64,000 nt of DNA. It comes from Pseudomonadota bacterium (GTDB lineage Bacteria; Pseudomonadota; Alphaproteobacteria; Rhizobiales; JANQQB01). The stretch spans positions 19,346-83,345 of the forward strand of contig JBCDLT010000024.1 in NCBI GenBank assembly GCA_038745065.1, read 5' to 3'. Position numbers and translations under genes: made by a program. This document shows positions 19,304 to 61,614 of the stretch, in pieces. The notes beneath the pieces were generated by a model. That model saw only the letters and a program-made list of their open reading frames with translations. It was not told the DNA's origin and made no database searches. The first letter of the stretch is position 1. Every line of letters begins with the position of its first letter.

Positions 19304-19444
19304 GGGACTCCTCCCGATTTTGGCCCCGTTGTCTGGCGGCCGTCGATAACCGTTCGCATCAACGCGGCTCCCAGGGGCAACAGGACGGCGACACGCCAGG
19401 CAGACGACCGGCCGATGTCGAGCCATACAATGGGGAGTAATGGA

Positions 19445-54681: not shown

Positions 54682-56706
54682 ATGTCCTTCTTCTCGCCGT
54701 TCACGCACGGATTTCTTCGGGTGGCGACCGCCACCCCGCGCTGCCATATTGCCGACCCGGTCCGAAACGCAGACGAGACGCTGGCGCTGGCCCATGACGC
54801 CGATACCGGCCATGTCGATCTGGTCGTTTTTCCGGAACTGGGCCTAACCGGCTATACCAATGACGACTTGTTCCTGCAGGAGGCCATGCACACGGCTGCC
54901 GAGGAGGCGCTCCGGCAGATCGTCGACGCGAGTGTCGACCTGCATCCCGTTCTGGTCGTCGGCATGCCGAAAGTCATTCAGGGACAATTGTTCAACCTGG
55001 CGATCGTCGTGCATCGCGGGCGCATTCTCGGCGCGGTTCCGAAACTCTTCCTGCCGACCTATCGGGAATTCTACGAGAAGCGGCAATTCTCCGGCGCGGA
55101 TTCGCTGACGGCGACGGAAACGCATCTGGCGGGGCAGACCGTGCCGGTGGGCCTTGACCTGCTTTTCGAGGCCGACGACGTAGCCGGTTTCGTCTTGTCC
55201 CTGGAAATCTGCGAGGACGTCTGGGCGCCGATCCCGCCAAGCGCCGTAACTGCGCTTGGCGGCGCCACCGTGATCGCAAACCTGTCGGCCAGTAACGTCG
55301 TGATCGGCAAATCCGATTATCGGCACGCGCTGTGCCGGGTGCATTCGGCACGCACGATGGCGGCCTATCTGTATTCCGCGGCCGGGCGAGGCGAATCGTC
55401 GACCGACCTGTCGTGGGACGGCCATGCGATGATCTACGAAAACGGTCACCTGCTTGCCGAATCGGAGCGGTTTTCGACCGATCCGCAGCTTGCCGTCGCC
55501 GATGTCGATCTCGATCTTCTCAATCTGGAGCGGGCACGCCACAACACCTTTGCCGACAACGCGGCGCGCTACAGCACCGAGATCGCCGCGCTGCGTCGGA
55601 TCGGATTTACGCTGGGCCGGGTGGCGGCGCCGATAACCCCGTTGCGCCGTCCGATTTCCCGTTACCCTTTCATTCCCGACGATCAGGACAAACGCGACGA
55701 ATTGTGTTTCGAAGCCTACAACATACAGGTCTACGGCTTGCGGACACGGCTTGAGGCGACGGGGATCAAAAAAATCGTCATCGGGGTCTCGGGCGGTCTC
55801 GATTCAACCCAAGCCTTGATCGTGGCGGCCCGGGCCTTCGATCAACTGGGTCTGCCGCGCGAAAACATTCTCGCCTATACGCTCCCGGCCTTTGCCACCA
55901 GCGATCACACAAAATCCAATGCCTGGGCCCTGATGCGGGCGCTTAAGGTGTCGGCGGGCGAAATCGACATGGAACCGTCGGCAATGCAGACCCTCAAGGA
56001 CATCGGACACCCGTTTGCCGATGGCAAACCGCATTACGATGTCACGTTCGAAAACGTCCAGGCCGGTGCCCGCACCGCACTGCTCTTCCGATTGGCGAAC
56101 AAGGAAGGCGGTCTTGTGCTCGGGACCGGGGATCTTTCGGAACTGGCGCTCGGCTGGTCGACCTATGGCGTCGGCGATCACATGTCCCACTACAACGTCA
56201 ACGGATCGGTCGCCAAGACCCTGATCCAGCACCTCATCCGATGGGTTGTCGCCCGTAACGAGTTCGGCGATGACGCGTCGGCCGTCCTGCAATCGATCGT
56301 CGACACGGAGATCTCACCTGAACTGGTCCCGGGCGCCGAGAGCGGCGGGTCCGGTCCGGCGCAACGCACCGAAGATTTTGTCGGACCCTACGCGCTGCAG
56401 GATTTCAATCTGTTCTATACGACGCGGTACGGCCTCAGGCCGTCGAAGGTGGCCTATCTGTGCCATCACGCCTGGGGTCCGGAATCCGGAGAGGGCGCCT
56501 ATTCGCTGGCGGAGATCAGACGATGGGCGCAGGTTTTCCTGAAACGCTTTTTCCAGACCAGCCAATTCAAGCGGTCGGCCGTGCCGAACGGGCCGAAAGT
56601 CGCCTCCGGCGGCTCGCTCTCGCCACGCGGCGATTGGCGGGCGCCGAGCGATTCCCGGGCGGATATGTGGCTCGCCGAACTGGATGGGAATGTGCCGGAA
56701 ACCTGA
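54682..56706 (+). CDS. nadE: Glutamine-dependent NAD+ synthetase
   Basis: Nitrilase domain ([19 protein letters not shown]) fused to synthetase ([22 protein letters not shown]). Confidence 0.97.
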
Positions 56707-56784
56707 CGCTCGGCTCTTTGCCTTCGGCGAACGACGACCTCAGATCCTTACCAATTGGTTTCGCGGACCGCGAAATTCCGTCTC

Positions 56785-57174
56785 GAATCGGGACAAGGTC
56801 CTGACCCGGTGTCGGGCCCGTCAGCGGGCGGGCATCCCTCCCGACACCGAGACGGTCGCTCTTCGGGCCTGTTTTCGGGGATTTCGCGCGGATCAAAGCA
56901 AAAACATCCGCGGGTCCGCGATTCGTTTGGTATTCGTTCCCGTTTGAATCTATTCGTGAACGGGGTCGACGCCGGGATGCCAGCCTGGAAAATATTTTGT
57001 TAACCTCTTGACTCTTTTCGATTCGGCGAATCGGACCGAAGACTCGGAAATCGGGCAACTTTAGGCTAAAGATTCAATATATCGTGCTTCGAACACAGAA
57101 AATCACACATCTTGTATGGAACAAATCCTGAATCACGCTGAGTCAGCGATTCGGTCAGTCTTTGTTCTAGACTC
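56785..57174. promoter_or_regulatory. Dense cluster of 12 GANTC sites
   Basis: Sites at 56785, 56920, 56946, 57010, 57020, 57028, 57041, 57071, 57130, 57140, 57148, 57170 (counted by eye). Confidence 0.85.
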
Positions 57175-57178
57175 GTTC
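57164..57178. promoter_or_regulatory. Alphaproteobacterial LexA (SOS) box
   Basis: GTTC-TAGACTC-GTTC exact GTTC-N7-GTTC; near match GAAC-N7-GAAT at 57119-57133. Confidence 0.65.
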
Positions 57179-57360
57179 CGAAGCTGACCGGGCGAAAGGC
57201 GTGCAACAAAAAATCCTTCCTGACCGGCAAAAGCCGTGGCTGACCCGTCGCTCTGTGCTATGTGAGCCCAAACGCCATAGCAAAGGCAGCCGGAACACGT
57301 ATCGGCAGCCTCGGCATGAGTGACGACTGGCCATCGTAGACGCACCTGGATCAATCCCGA

Positions 57361-60300
57361 ATGTCTGGTTTTTCCCAACCGGTTTCCGGTTCTTCGCGGT
57401 CGAATCGCAATCGTTTGGTGACCGCCGTACTTGGCCCGACCAATACCGGCAAGACGCACCTGGCGATTGAGCGCATGCTCGGCCATGAGACGGGCATGAT
57501 CGGATTGCCGCTCCGATTGCTGGCCCGCGAGGTCTATACAAAGATCGCCGGCCGGATCGGAGAGAACGCCGTCGCGCTCGTCACCGGGGAGGAGAAGATC
57601 CTGCCGGCGGAGCCCCGATACTGGGTCTGCACCGTCGAGGCAATGCCGCTCGATACCGACGTTGCGTTTGTCGCCATCGACGAAGTGCAACTGGCCGGTG
57701 ATCTGGAGCGCGGCCATGTCTTTACCGATCGGATCCTGAACCTGCGCGGCCAGCAGGAGACCCTTTTGCTCGGAGCCGCGACGATGCGCGGTATCCTGGA
57801 GCGCATCGTTCCCGGCATCAATGTCATCACCCGACCGCGCATGTCGGTGCTTGCCTATAGCGGGCAGAAAAAGATTACACGGCTCCCGCCACGCTCGGCG
57901 ATCGTCGCGTTCTCGTCAGACGAAGTTTATGCGATCGCAGAACTGGTGCGCCGACAACGCGGCGGCGCCGCGGTGGTCATGGGCGCGCTCAGCCCGCGTA
58001 CCCGCAATGCCCAGGTGGCGCTCTACCAATCCGGAGACGTCGATTTTCTGATTGCGACCGACGCGATCGGGATGGGGCTCAACCTGGACGTCGATCATGT
58101 GGCCTTTGCGTCGGACAGGAAGTTCGACGGATACCAGTACCGGTCGCTGACCCCGGCCGAACTCGGCCAGATTTCCGGTCGCGCCGGTCGGCATATGAAA
58201 GACGGCACGTTCGGCGTGACCGGGCGCGTCGATCCGTTTCCGGACGACGTGGTCGATGCACTCGAAAGCCATGCGTTCCAACCGGTCTCGATCCTGCAAT
58301 GGCGCGAGCGCAAACTCGATACGTCAAGCGTTGCGGCCTTGCGGGCTTCGCTCGATACCGTTCCAGGCATTCAGGGCCTCACCCGGGCCCCGGCGGCATC
58401 CGATATCGTGGCGCTCGATCACGCCATGAAAGACGACGAGGTCATCGACCTCGCTACCGGGTCCGAACGGGTGGCCTTGCTCTGGACAGCATGCCAGCTT
58501 CCGGACTACCGGAAAATCGCACCCGCCAACCACTACGAACTCATCCACGCGATCTTCACGCAGATCGCCCGATCCGGTCATGTCGATCCGGACTGGTTCG
58601 ACACCCAGGTCAAACAATGCGCCAATACCAATGGCGATATCGATGCGCTGGCCAACCGGATTGCCCATATCCGGACCTGGACCTATTTGGCCAACCGACC
58701 CGACTGGCTGGCGGATGCCGAAACCTGGCGGGAAAACACACGGGCGATCGAGGATACGCTTTCCGACGCGCTGCACGATCGCCTGATCCAGCGCTTTGTC
58801 GACCGGCGGACCAGCGTCCTGATGAAACGGCTACGGGAAAATGCAATGCTTGAAGCCGACATAAACGATGCCGGCGATATCGTGGTGGAAGGCGAGCATA
58901 TCGGCCACCTCGAAGGCTTCCGGTTTACCCCGGCGTCGCGTGGCGACAGCGCGGAGGCAAAGGCCGTTCGCGCGGCCGCGATGAAGGCATTGGCGGAGGA
59001 AATCGGCCGGCGGGCGGATCGCATGGCTGCGGCCGACAACGCAGCCTTCGTCCTGGCGGCCGGCAAGACCATCCGCTGGCAGGGGGCTGCGGTGGCCAAG
59101 CTGGCGGCGTCGGACGATCCGCTGAAACCGCGCGTGATCCCGCTTGCGGACGAACATCTGACCGGTCCGGCGCTGGAAAAGGTGCAAAAGCGTCTGGACA
59201 CATGGCTCGCGGCCCATATCGAAGGAGCCTTGAAACCGTTGCTCGACCTGCGGGACGCTGCGGATCTGACAGGTATTGCCCGCGGTGTGGCCTTCCGGCT
59301 CGTTGAGAATTTCGGCAACATCGCCCGCACCGAAATCGGCGAGGACATCCGCAAGCTTGACCAGGAGACCCGTGCCGTGATGCGCCGTTACGGCATCCGT
59401 TTCGGTGCGTACACGATCTATGTACCGGTTCTTCTGAAGCCGGCACCGAGCCAATTGCTCGCCGAATTGTGGGCGCTCGCCCAACCCGAGGACGACGTGC
59501 CCGGATTGCAGGAGATTCCGCAATTGTCCGCTTCGGGCCGAACCTCGGTGCCTGTCGATGCGTCGTTCGCGTCGGAAATGTACCGGATTGTCGGGTATCG
59601 GGTCTGCGGCGCGCGCGCCGTCCGGATCGACATTCTCGAACGGCTGGCCGACCTGATCCGTCCGCTGATCGCATGGCGCGCCAGCGAGACGCAGCCGACA
59701 CCGCCGGACGGGGCGATCGAGCGCGGCGGCGGCTTTACCGTGACCGTGGCGATGACCTCGCTGCTCGGTTGTTCGGGGGAGGACTTCGCAGGAATATTGA
59801 AGACCATCGGATACCGCGTGCAACGGGTTCCGAGGCCAGTGCCGCCAGTGCCTCATGCCGACACGTCCCTCACAAATGGGTCGGCCGAGGGAGGCGCCAC
59901 AGCGCTTCAAAATGGTGAGGCGGCGACCGCCGCCGAAAACGGCCTTGCAGACAGTCCTGAAGCAACCGACGCCCTGCCGGCTGTCGATGGCGTGGACGCC
60001 TTGGCGAATGCCGCTGTTGCCGAAACCGGCAGCGCGCCGGCTGAGGCGTCTCCGGCAGCGCAGGAAACCGACGCGGTTCAGGTTGGCGAACAGGACGGGA
60101 CGGATAGGCCGCTCGATGCGGTTGCCTTAGTGGCTGAAGGTCCGGCAACCGATAATGGCGGAGCACCGGAAACCGACGGCGACGGTTCTGCGATCGACGG
60201 CGACGCAGCGGAAACGCGCCAGGCCGTATCAAATGCCGAAGATGTCCCGGATTTCATCGAAATCTGGCGACCGGGCGGGGATCGGCAGCGCAACGCGCGT

Positions 60301-60552
60301 TCCCGGAACAAACCAAAGGCCGGCAAGACCTCGGATGCAGGGCGGGGCTCGCGCCGGCCCGCAGGCAAATCCGGCGGCCGCGGCGATCGCGATCAGGAGC
60401 GCAGGGCTTCCGGAGACAAAGGCGGAAAACGGCCGCCGCGAAAGGACGGTCAGGGCGGCAGGAATGCCCGCCCCGAAAAACCGCTTGATCCGGATTCTCC
60501 CTTCGCCGCGCTTGCCGCGCTGAAAGCCAGCATGGAAAAAGATCAAAAGTGA
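57361..60552 (+). CDS. SF2 helicase, SUV3/MgpS-like
   Basis: LGPTNTGKT, PLRLLARE, IDEVQ, ATDAIGMGLN, QISGRAGR, C-terminal PDSPFAALAALK. Confidence 0.92.
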   Translation: MSGFSQPVSGSSRSNRNRLVTAVLGPTNTGKTHLAIERMLGHETGMIGLPLRLLAREVYTKIAGRIGENAVALVTGEEKILPAEPRYWVCTVEAMPLDTDVAFVAIDEVQLAGDLERGHVFTDRILNLRGQQETLLLGAATMRGILERIVPGINVITRPRMSVLAYSGQKKITRLPPRSAIVAFSSDEVYAIAELVRRQRGGAAVVMGALSPRTRNAQVALYQSGDVDFLIATDAIGMGLNLDVDHVAFASDRKFDGYQYRSLTPAELGQISGRAGRHMKDGTFGVTGRVDPFPDDVVDALESHAFQPVSILQWRERKLDTSSVAALRASLDTVPGIQGLTRAPAASDIVALDHAMKDDEVIDLATGSERVALLWTACQLPDYRKIAPANHYELIHAIFTQIARSGHVDPDWFDTQVKQCANTNGDIDALANRIAHIRTWTYLANRPDWLADAETWRENTRAIEDTLSDALHDRLIQRFVDRRTSVLMKRLRENAMLEADINDAGDIVVEGEHIGHLEGFRFTPASRGDSAEAKAVRAAAMKALAEEIGRRADRMAAADNAAFVLAAGKTIRWQGAAVAKLAASDDPLKPRVIPLADEHLTGPALEKVQKRLDTWLAAHIEGALKPLLDLRDAADLTGIARGVAFRLVENFGNIARTEIGEDIRKLDQETRAVMRRYGIRFGAYTIYVPVLLKPAPSQLLAELWALAQPEDDVPGLQEIPQLSASGRTSVPVDASFASEMYRIVGYRVCGARAVRIDILERLADLIRPLIAWRASETQPTPPDGAIERGGGFTVTVAMTSLLGCSGEDFAGILKTIGYRVQRVPRPVPPVPHADTSLTNGSAEGGATALQNGEAATAAENGLADSPEATDALPAVDGVDALANAAVAETGSAPAEASPAAQETDAVQVGEQDGTDRPLDAVALVAEGPATDNGGAPETDGDGSAIDGDAAETRQAVSNAEDVPDFIEIWRPGGDRQRNARSRNKPKAGKTSDAGRGSRRPAGKSGGRGDRDQERRASGDKGGKRPPRKDGQGGRNARPEKPLDPDSPFAALAALKASMEKDQK

Positions 60553-60962
60553 CCGACAGCGCCGCGATCGAACGCCAGCGGATTGACAAGTGGTTGTGGC
60601 ACGCCCGGATCGTCAAGACGCGCACGCTGGCGCAAAGAATTGTCGGTGGCGGAAAAGTCCGTGTGAATCGGGACAAGGTTGTCGCGTCAAGCGCCTCGGT
60701 GCGGGTCGGTGACGTACTCACAATCACGCTGTTGAAGCGTGTCTTGGTCCTCGAGGTCGTCGGGTTCTGTGACCGAAGGGGTCCGGCGAGCCTGGCGCAA
60801 ACGCTCTACGAAGACCTATCCGCCCCGGCGCCGGTCAGAGGCACGGAGGACCCCTCTGCAGCGGCCGACGCGGCGGTCCATCCCGGTGGTCTGGCGGGCG
60901 GGAGACCGAACAAACGGGACCGCAGACGTCTCGCCAACCTGAAAAAAACCGAATCCGGATAA
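60549..60962 (+). CDS. hslR: S4-domain ribosome-associated heat shock protein Hsp15-like
   Basis: [27 protein letters not shown]; GTGA overlap with helicase. Confidence 0.88.
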
Positions 60963-61275
60963 GTCTCCTGCCGCGTTGTCAGGCTCGGTTGTGCAAGCAA
61001 TTTGCCGGTCCACGATGATCGGGACCGGCTGTTCGCCGCTGCGTTTCACGTCGGCCGACGACGCATCCGGTAAAACGTCGCCTTGCCTTTTTTGGCAAAA
61101 TTGCTACGTCCTGCGGGAACCCACAGGATCGCCGCTGGCGAAAGCCGCGAAGGCGGGCCAAACCGGCGGGCTACCGTCAGCCGACTGGCAAATGGTACGG
61201 GGTGCCGCGATCAGTCAGGCCGACCGGTTGTTTCCGGAACGCGCCTCGCAGGGCAACACGATAAGGGAGAGGTCG

Positions 61276-61614
61276 ATGACCTACGTCGTCACGGACAATT
61301 GCGTACGGTGCAAGTACATGGATTGCGTGGAGGTCTGTCCGGTCGACTGCTTTTACGAGGGCGAAAACATGCTCGTCATCCACCCCGATGAATGCATCGA
61401 TTGCGGCGTGTGCGAGCCGGAATGCCCGGCAGAGGCCATCAAACCCGACACAGAACCCGGTCTCGAAAAGTGGCTGGAAGTGAATGCGGAATATTCCGAA
61501 AAGTGGCCAAACATCACAATGAAGCGGGACGCGCCCCCGGACGCTGAAAAATTTGACGGTCAAGCGGGCAAATTCGAACAATATTTTTCGGCAAATCCCG
61601 GTCAAGGCGATTGA
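61276..61614 (+). CDS. fdxA: Ferredoxin FdxA
   Basis: [29 protein letters not shown]...[13 protein letters not shown]; AGGGAGAGG RBS. Confidence 0.96.

Follow-up and report, generated by a model that had tools for sequence, protein, structure and literature searches.

A dense GANTC cluster upstream of a Suv3-like helicase gene, conserved across Hyphomicrobiales, as a candidate methylation-sensitive promoter element

The 64,000-nucleotide stretch of Pseudomonadota bacterium DNA analyzed here (GTDB lineage Alphaproteobacteria, Rhizobiales, JANQQB01; assembly GCA_038745065.1, contig JBCDLT010000024.1, forward-strand positions 19,346 to 83,345; hereafter the window) contains, between nadE and the gene for a Suv3-like DExQ-box superfamily 2 (SF2) helicase, an intergenic region crowded with GANTC, the sequence methylated by CcrM in Alphaproteobacteria. 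A preliminary description of this DNA, made from its letters alone, had read the crowding as a cell-cycle or replication-timed control element acting on the helicase gene and the adjoining hslR, and had named a genome-wide ranking of GANTC density, an alignment of orthologous upstream regions, and the presence of ccrM as evidence that would bear on the proposal. All three speak for it in the analysis below. The best explanation for the cluster is that it is a conserved cis-regulatory DNA module in the promoter region of a helicase-hslR(-fdxA) operon. The kind of control to which it points, that of a CcrM/GcrA promoter, is known; what is unusual is a multi-site arrangement of fixed architecture that recurs across the order. 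The features of the locus are collected in Table 1. The stop codon of the helicase gene is overlapped by 4 bases by hslR, which suggests that the two form one operon, and the ferredoxin gene, which starts 14 bp 3' of hslR, may belong to the same transcription unit.

Table 1. Genes and sequence features of the helicase locus, in window coordinates
Feature	Position	Strand	Basis
nadE, glutamine-dependent NAD+ synthase; left border of the intergenic region	54682..56706	+	Pfam CN_hydrolase and NAD_synthase; NCBIfam NF002730, 992 bits (cut-off 473)
Intergenic region with all 12 GANTC, 654 bp	56707..57360		Sequence
Partly decayed second module copy	56890..56950	+	Direct repeat; sequence
Genus-specific GANTC quartet (57010, 57020, 57028, 57041)	57010..57045		Common to congener G001 only
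Whole module	57071..57179	+	Anchored alignments
Distal box: GATTC, then AATATATCGTG; counterpart in relatives cGATTCagcATcTGGTG	57071..57086	+	Anchored alignments
Conserved box CACACATCT..GGAACAAA, consensus CCAnATnTnGCnGTGAACgAA	57104..57125	+	Alignment
Conserved core	57130..57179	+	GAATC 57130, GAGTC 57140, CGATTCG 57147-57153, TTTGTTC 57161-57167, GACTC 57170, GTTCC 57175-57179
Suv3-like DExQ-box SF2 helicase, 1063 aa	57361..60552	+	Pfam PF22527 (89 bits), PF00271 (Helicase_C)
hslR, Hsp15-like S4-domain protein	60549..60962	+	Pfam S4; best NCBIfam Hsp15 NF007673, E 9.8e-16, below cut-off
Ferredoxin (4Fe-4S + DUF3470)	60976..61614	+	Open reading frame, Pfam

The twelve sites begin at positions 56785, 56920, 56946, 57010, 57020, 57028, 57041, 57071, 57130, 57140, 57148, and 57170; all of them fall within 390 bp (56785-57174) and eleven within 255 bp (56920-57174), exactly as first described. 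GANTC is otherwise scarce in this genome, in line with the general under-representation that the preliminary description had noted: the window contains 143 sites against 352 ± 18.5 in 100 dinucleotide shuffles, and the whole genome contains 10,836, or 1.64 per kb, against 3.46 per kb expected from base composition. When sliding windows over all 145 contigs (6.59 Mb) were ranked by GANTC count, the locus came first at 150, 255, and 390 bp, with 8, 11, and 12 sites, and the runner-up loci held 6, 7, and 9. A first-order Markov model trained on the intergenic region itself, which makes the comparison conservative, reached 11 sites in 255 bp in none of 20,000 trials and a total of at least 12 with P = 0.0019. 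Chance is excluded as the source of the cluster, and the excess is real. Its sites are also of a particular kind: the sequence YGAKTCK, preferred by GcrA, fits 7 of the 12 as compared with 20.5% of all genomic GANTC (binomial P 0.0045), and by the density of this motif the locus again ranks first in the genome, with 7 occurrences in 390 bp and 5 at the next best. Pairwise distances between the sites show a periodicity peak at 10-10.25 bp, which reflects the shared module and is not independent evidence of helical phasing.

Several of the next-densest clusters lie outside the window at C43:29200-31700, inside a long, highly repetitive, coding-like stretch where GAGTC and GAATC sit in repeated GTTGTC..GAATTGTC units and which resembles an opposite-strand repeat protein with many acidic, Asn, and Ser residues; these are a composition effect and not a regulatory cluster. 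At the very start of another contig, C46, two arms (1-70 and 300-365), each with three GATTC or GAATC at 9-bp steps, bracket about 260 bp and look reverse-complementary by eye; they may be a hairpin-type assembly artifact or a real inverted repeat.

The extra sites of the window have two sources besides the module, namely the decayed second copy and the genus-specific quartet. CGATTCG is the core site of the module, and a direct repeat, GTTC-N7-GTTC, runs from 57164 to 57178 with GACTC within its spacer. The second copy retains GGATCAAA (56890-56897), GGGTC (56912-56916), CGATTCG (56919-56925), TATTCGTTCC (56931-56940), and GAATC (56946-56950), and part of it (56914-56939) forms a direct repeat with 57142-57167 at 77% identity and a spacing of 228. 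The quartet surrounds the palindrome CGATTCGGCGAATCG (57019-57033), and YGAKTCK fits three of its four sites. The preliminary description had drawn attention to two triplets of identical 10/8-bp spacing placed 120 bp apart (57010/57020/57028 and 57130/57140/57148), and they are present as it stated. Their pairwise alignment gives matching spacing and no clear duplication; the second triplet is conserved beyond the genus and the first is common only to congener G001, which makes the 120-bp offset look incidental. The composite motif occurs once in the 6.59-Mb genome. In other genomes full core copies number two or three, as at L039 with two and L076 (Hoeflea) with three. A terminator-like stem followed by a T-run stands at 56972-56997, between the two module copies, and could end a short transcript from the upstream copy.

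The helicase itself is widespread, its N-terminus being present in all 41 relatives searched and the helicase in 53 of 81 genomes sampled across the class. Among 30 loci, from 29 relatives in other families of the order and one congener, the 255 bp upstream of the gene held 5 to 14 GANTC at 12 and 0 or 1 at 9. A scan of named genomes, including Mesorhizobium, Rhizobium, Agrobacterium, Hoeflea, Phyllobacterium, Bosea, Afipia, Xanthobacteraceae, and Hyphomicrobiaceae, added 80 loci; at least 5 GANTC stood in the upstream 255 bp at 42 of the 77 named Hyphomicrobiales loci with enough upstream DNA, and the density at the named Hyphomicrobiales loci was 7.6 per kb in the upstream 700 bp versus 1.18 per kb in the helicase coding sequence. 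In the class-wide sample the module was present at 6 of the 29 loci read and most others had 0 or 1 GANTC, which makes it mainly a feature of Hyphomicrobiales and a few neighboring lineages. Of the 106 upstream regions left after removal of one congener and three short loci, YGATTCG was found in 81, GTTC-N7-GTTC on the gene strand in 67, and the composite GATTCG-N8-12-GTTC-N7-GTTY in 70, all Hyphomicrobiales. The alignment of orthologous upstream regions thus bears out the proposal with a module conserved across the order.

Alignment of 68 modules yields the consensus GAAC..GAATC-N5-GAGTCAGC-GATTCGG-N5-GATTCGTTCC-A-GACTCGTTCC. Read 5' to 3', the distal part consists of the cGATTCagcATcTGGTG box, about 20 variable bases, and CCAnATnTnGCnGTGAACgAA, and the core of GAATC, N5, GAGTCAGC, GATTCGG, N5, (GA)TTCGTTCC, N1, GACTC, and GTTCC. 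The 68 sequences were picked by a regular expression requiring GA.TC, [GT]TTC-N7-GTT[CT], and the spacing, so that the invariance of the GA.TC and GTTC-repeat columns is partly by construction; the expression did not demand Y before GATTC, G after it, GAGTCAGC, or GAAC. In all 68, nevertheless, the central site was GATTC preceded by C or T and followed by G, and GAAC, about 41 bp upstream, was invariant or nearly so. GAGTC was found at site 2 in 48. Site 1 was GANTC in 33 (GAATC 25, GATTC 5, GACTC 3) and site 4, the last, in 37 (GACTC 33, GAGTC 4); at both of these the middle base varies and GANTC is retained. TTAA follows exactly 6 bases after the module end in 27 of the 68 and is absent from that place, after the last GTTC, in the copy of the window.

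The enrichment extends beyond the alignable module. With the module masked, the upstream 350-bp flank carries 6.1 GANTC per kb and both flanks combined 4.9 per kb, as against 1.4-3.1 per kb for seven control palindromic pentamers; the leader downstream of the module carries 2.3 per kb. Comparison with the congener gave 23 mismatches in 300 bp and none within the 44 specified bases of the GANTC sites (P 0.022).

CcrM/GcrA control is well studied in Caulobacter, and both proteins have counterparts here. The single N6_N4_Mtase match of the genome is a 378-aa open reading frame that covers positions 2-348 of the 350 of NF050803 (CcrM) at 622 bits, under the strict equivalog cut-off of 830, and we call it a CcrM homologue; GcrA is encoded on contig C73 (PF07750, 184.8 bits, above cut-off). 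The methylated site preferred by GcrA is TGATTCG, more broadly YGAKTCK, and most GcrA-regulated promoters have their site within 40 bp of the start, according to Haakonsen 2015 (PMC4647560); the module core YGATTCG is the best GcrA-binding sequence published there. The module resembles the CcrM-methylated promoters of Caulobacter crescentus (ctrA P1, podJ P2, mipZ) in its putatively promoter-proximal GANTC and its YGAKTCK context, and it agrees with this class also in that ccrM and gcrA are present and the syntenic Caulobacter gene is itself listed there. Most promoters of the class have a single site; the module differs in having 5 fixed ones, with as many as 14 in one promoter, and in its fixed 10/8/11/11-bp spacing and additional GAAC and GTTC-N7-GTTC elements.

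We tentatively regard the module as a promoter element sensitive to methylation state and probably read by GcrA, although we put this at slightly less than even odds; most likely the module would tie expression of the operon to the DNA replication cycle. The helicase gene lies 51-458 kb from hemE (1-12% of genome length) in all five closed genomes of relatives, which are related and not independent samples. Such a position close to the origin means that the sites would be hemimethylated from early S phase onward: the fork would pass early, converting the sites from the fully methylated to the hemimethylated state, and they would keep that state until late in the cycle, when CcrM is made. A reader of the hemimethylated state, most likely the sigma-70 cofactor GcrA, would then bind the YGATTCG core and the neighboring GANTC at 8-, 10-, and 11-bp spacing, the 11-bp steps placing those sites on one face of the helix, and binding would raise transcription during S phase. 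The additional GANTC of the decayed copy and the quartet would add reader sites.

Two candidate promoter placements can be drawn. Upstream of the core lie a conserved CTTGTG-like box, about 19 nt, and a CCAnAT-like box, which by reading resemble promoter entries of S. meliloti and with which the core sites would fall at about +12 to +60; the 57104..57125 box could be an alphaproteobacterial-type -10 element with the start region of the promoter. Alternatively, GACTC would lie in the promoter spacer with TTAA near -10; the window is without that TTAA. This second placement resembles ctrA P1 as Zhou 2015 describes it: in the 27 modules counted by their TTAA, irrespective of whether GANTC stands at the GACTC position, TTAA begins 15 bp after the start of that position, the same offset as from the ctrA P1 GANTC (-29) to its CtrA half-site TTAA (-14). 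A sigma-32 or EcfG promoter, suggested by the CTTG..CCAnAT and GGAAC boxes, was rejected by eye because the spacing, about 19-20 nt with no CGTT at 16-17 nt, does not fit, and NrdR, parS, and DnaA-box readings of the distal boxes were dropped as fitting poorly.

Published Caulobacter data bear on the GcrA reading. The syntenic helicase gene there is CCNA_00694, annotated as a DNA helicase, and Caulobacter matched the Suv3 domain family in a control search. Its primary start site, 754342(-), is cell-cycle regulated with a peak at 40-60 min (normalized values at successive time points 0.29, 0.38, 1.0, 0.80, and 0.29), and its promoter has a GANTC at -23 within a sigma-70-type motif (Zhou 2015 supplements); CCNA_00694 occurs in three (S1, S4, and S11) of the 20 supplementary files searched. 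The same study assigns it to the "red" class, whose members fire at 40-60 min and have GANTC in the interval from -35 to -10, into which the GANTC of ctrA P1 (-29) and podJ P2 (-24) also fall. For the helicase ortholog group, Adhikari et al. 2021 (PMC7987155) list the extended GANTC in 20 of 23 species of Caulobacterales, with 74 sites in all and as many as 8 in one promoter, and in 10 of the 13 representatives of orders, so that enrichment in this gene family was already tabulated. We found no description of this cluster in the literature covered, although some supplementary tables, outside that coverage, may list the promoter. The word "helicase" does not occur in the text available from PMC8725594, a bioRxiv nanopore preprint, PMC3973325, PMC4647560, PMC5172544, and PMC7987155, and the searched text of Gonzalez 2014 gave no match. 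In the S. meliloti start-site tables (PMC3616915 supplements) the orthologue was not identified; SMc02152 was rejected for that role on its different helicase context, adjoining a virulence-associated protein. The claim of an undescribed system goes too far, as the module points to the known CcrM/GcrA kind of promoter control in a dense, fixed arrangement.

A number of observations weigh against control by GcrA. CCNA_00694 is absent from the Zhou 2015 dataset of GcrA chromatin immunoprecipitation (ChIP), S12, and in PMC7987155 the ortholog group has 0 in the columns for delta-gcrA, GcrA ChIP (Brevundimonas), CcrM, and GcrA ChIP (Caulobacter). The idea of a CcrM-type element acting on helicase-hslR was right in kind, given the conservation, the GcrA motif, and the cell-cycle-regulated Caulobacter start site; these published flags speak against it. 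The assignment of CCNA_00694 as the orthologue is based on synteny and domains. More than one upstream GANTC occurs at only 11 of 96 cell-cycle start sites, and no published GcrA promoter is described with 5-14. No canonical sigma-70 promoter match was found in the region, 36 of the 106 upstream regions are without the module, and GcrA leaves the conserved GAAC and GTTC-N7-GTTC elements unexplained. Finally, the middle base is nearly fixed at site 2 (GAGTC) and site 3 (GATTC), conservation that could be explained by a sequence-specific protein unrelated to methylation.

The GAAC and GTTC-N7-GTTC elements, missed by the preliminary description, open the way to a repressor, LexA or another. One possibility, doubtful but worth serious weight, is that a sequence-specific protein of another kind binds the 11-bp direct repeats (GAnTCGTTCC units) and an inverted GAAC box. 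Such a protein, perhaps a response regulator or a repressor dedicated to the operon, would have GANTC as part of its operator, and methylation would be irrelevant or would only modulate binding. The near-fixed middle bases and the zero GcrA and CcrM flags sit well with such a protein, as do the near-invariant GAAC, the unit (A/C)TCGTTCC that occurs twice at 11-bp spacing with CGTTCC as its first half in 34 of 68 modules and as its second half in 47, and the single genomic occurrence of the composite motif, as expected of a single-operon operator. Against it stand a best-conserved element that is exactly the GcrA consensus of Haakonsen 2015, the GANTC enrichment in an upstream flank that cannot be aligned, and sites 1 and 4, which vary in the middle base yet keep GANTC; no candidate protein was identified, and no known motif matched. 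More specifically, and in our judgment unlikely, the 3' part of the module could be an SOS operator on which LexA, binding GTTC-N7-GTTC, represses the helicase operon until DNA damage, GANTC being conserved because it overlaps or abuts the LexA box. The repeat is the alphaproteobacterial SOS box (review Table 1), its fixed spacing and position upstream of a helicase gene agree with that role, a damage-inducible helicase is plausible, lexA and recA are present, and in this genome both genes have boxes of this sort; PMC7987155, moreover, states that LexA boxes can overlap GANTC, mimicking its conservation, and uses this to explain conserved sites without a GcrA effect. Those recA and lexA boxes, however, have the form TGTTC-N6-TGTTC, and 57 of 68 modules have C immediately ahead of the second GTTC, where 16 of 20 recA boxes have T (boxes taken from the upstream regions of 18 of 30 relatives and compared by counts). 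The module has a flanking C and a GC-rich spacer with GACTC in place of the T before each GTTC and the AT-rich spacer of verified SOS boxes, none of the 20 recA boxes contains GANTC, and 15 of them lie on the strand opposite to the gene, whereas the helicase box is on the gene strand. The best-conserved element, YGATTCG, is not part of the box but lies 16 bp from it, GTTC-N7-GTTC is missing from the 25-nt promoter motif of Caulobacter, and the selecting expression itself demanded the repeat, making its invariance in the alignment one of construction. The site is at best an atypical LexA box. Dam GATC clusters, read by SeqA at the E. coli oriC and dnaA promoter and used as phase switches at pap with Lrp and at agn43 with OxyR, offer a parallel: in the module, as in those clusters, target sites for an orphan adenine methyltransferase are crowded together near the origin, some of them in helical phase, and they would be hemimethylated once the fork has passed. 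The module could also be a docking array for some other reader of phased hemimethylated GANTC, a functional counterpart of SeqA, or methylation of the GACTC in the GTTC-N7-GTTC spacer could gate the binding of LexA or a LexA-like repressor; we consider either form of this improbable, and no SeqA-type reader is known in Alphaproteobacteria or for GANTC. Outside the window, at C9:74944-75200, upstream of a 696-aa gene on the minus strand, six GANTC surround a good LexA-type box (TGTTC-N6-TGTTC at 75054), a second meeting of methylation sites and an SOS box.

That the cluster is instead a replication site with GANTC acting as in Cori, either the chromosomal origin or a datA/DARS-type locus that titrates or reactivates DnaA, is very unlikely. 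Cori carries five GANTC according to a review, the locus shares with it a GANTC cluster in AT-richer intergenic DNA (GC content 0.55, down to 0.41-0.51 in 56900-57150, with 0.62 for the genome) and proximity to the origin in the five closed relatives, and perfect 9-base DnaA boxes stand near the module upstream of the helicase at L010 (G018) and L011 (G028). Unlike Cori, the helicase intergenic region holds no DnaA-like box (at up to 2 mismatches) and no full CtrA box (TTAA-N7-TTAA), its contig, C24, has no skew switch, and the flanking genes, nadE and the helicase gene, run the same way and are not hemE and DUF299. A locus of the Caulobacter type lies elsewhere, at C30:69654-70106 outside the window, where hemE and DUF299 diverge from a spacer of 51% GC with 5 GANTC and six DnaA-like boxes (at up to 2 mismatches) and the cumulative GC skew reaches its lowest point at about 70-72 kb; the chromosomal origin is probably here, in a Cori-like arrangement. 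The origin reading is rejected on these grounds; the gene beside Cori, moreover, is DUF299 and not a helicase according to the review. A CtrA-type box, TTAA-N7-TTAAC, is found upstream of the helicase at L012 (G021) and not in the window. Equally little probability attaches to an RNA element, either a small RNA or a structured leader, folded by pairing of GAAC to GTTC and of GAAUC to GAUUC. An inverted repeat (57114-57131 with 57155-57172) is 78% complementary, and a two-stem model built on the inverted words GAAC/GTTC and GAATC/GATTC has 81% of its cells paired, but shuffles pair 80.9%, and 93 of 500 and 53 of 500 shuffles reached the observed pairing and covariation. RNAalifold gave no consensus pairs in the 68 sequences, and no Rfam family matched at threshold, the best E values, 0.32 and 0.41, belonging to unrelated families. 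With Rfam, RNAalifold, and covariation all lending no support, the RNA reading is rejected; the complementarity comes from conserved palindromic words, and the module acts as DNA.

The gene that the module would govern is itself poorly covered by known families. Helicase family matches are confined to its N-terminal ~280 aa, it has no NCBIfam match, about 780 C-terminal residues (57640-60552) match no Pfam or NCBIfam family, and the length of the open frame ranges from ~830 to ~1330 aa among relatives. On the 3' side of nadE, within 56805-56850, a perfect 10-bp hairpin stem pairs 56807-56816 with 56840-56849.

If control by CcrM and GcrA is what the module provides, then the module adds another methylated promoter to those known, albeit one of unusual complexity. 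PMC7987155 reports poor conservation of CcrM/GcrA targets from species to species; the fixed arrangement of the module across many Hyphomicrobiales families, at the densest GANTC locus of the genome, makes it a clean, conserved test bed for asking by what means several methylation sites are read, whether GcrA does the reading, and whether methylation interplays with a repressor of the GTTC repeat. Should the docking-array or methylation-gated-repressor reading be true, expression of an origin-proximal operon for a helicase and ribosome rescue would be licensed once in each round of replication and on other terms after DNA damage. This would connect the CcrM clock directly to a stress regulon, a connection that has not been described before. 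The module also points to an S-phase or replication-linked role for the uncharacterized Suv3-like helicase that is coupled to Hsp15.

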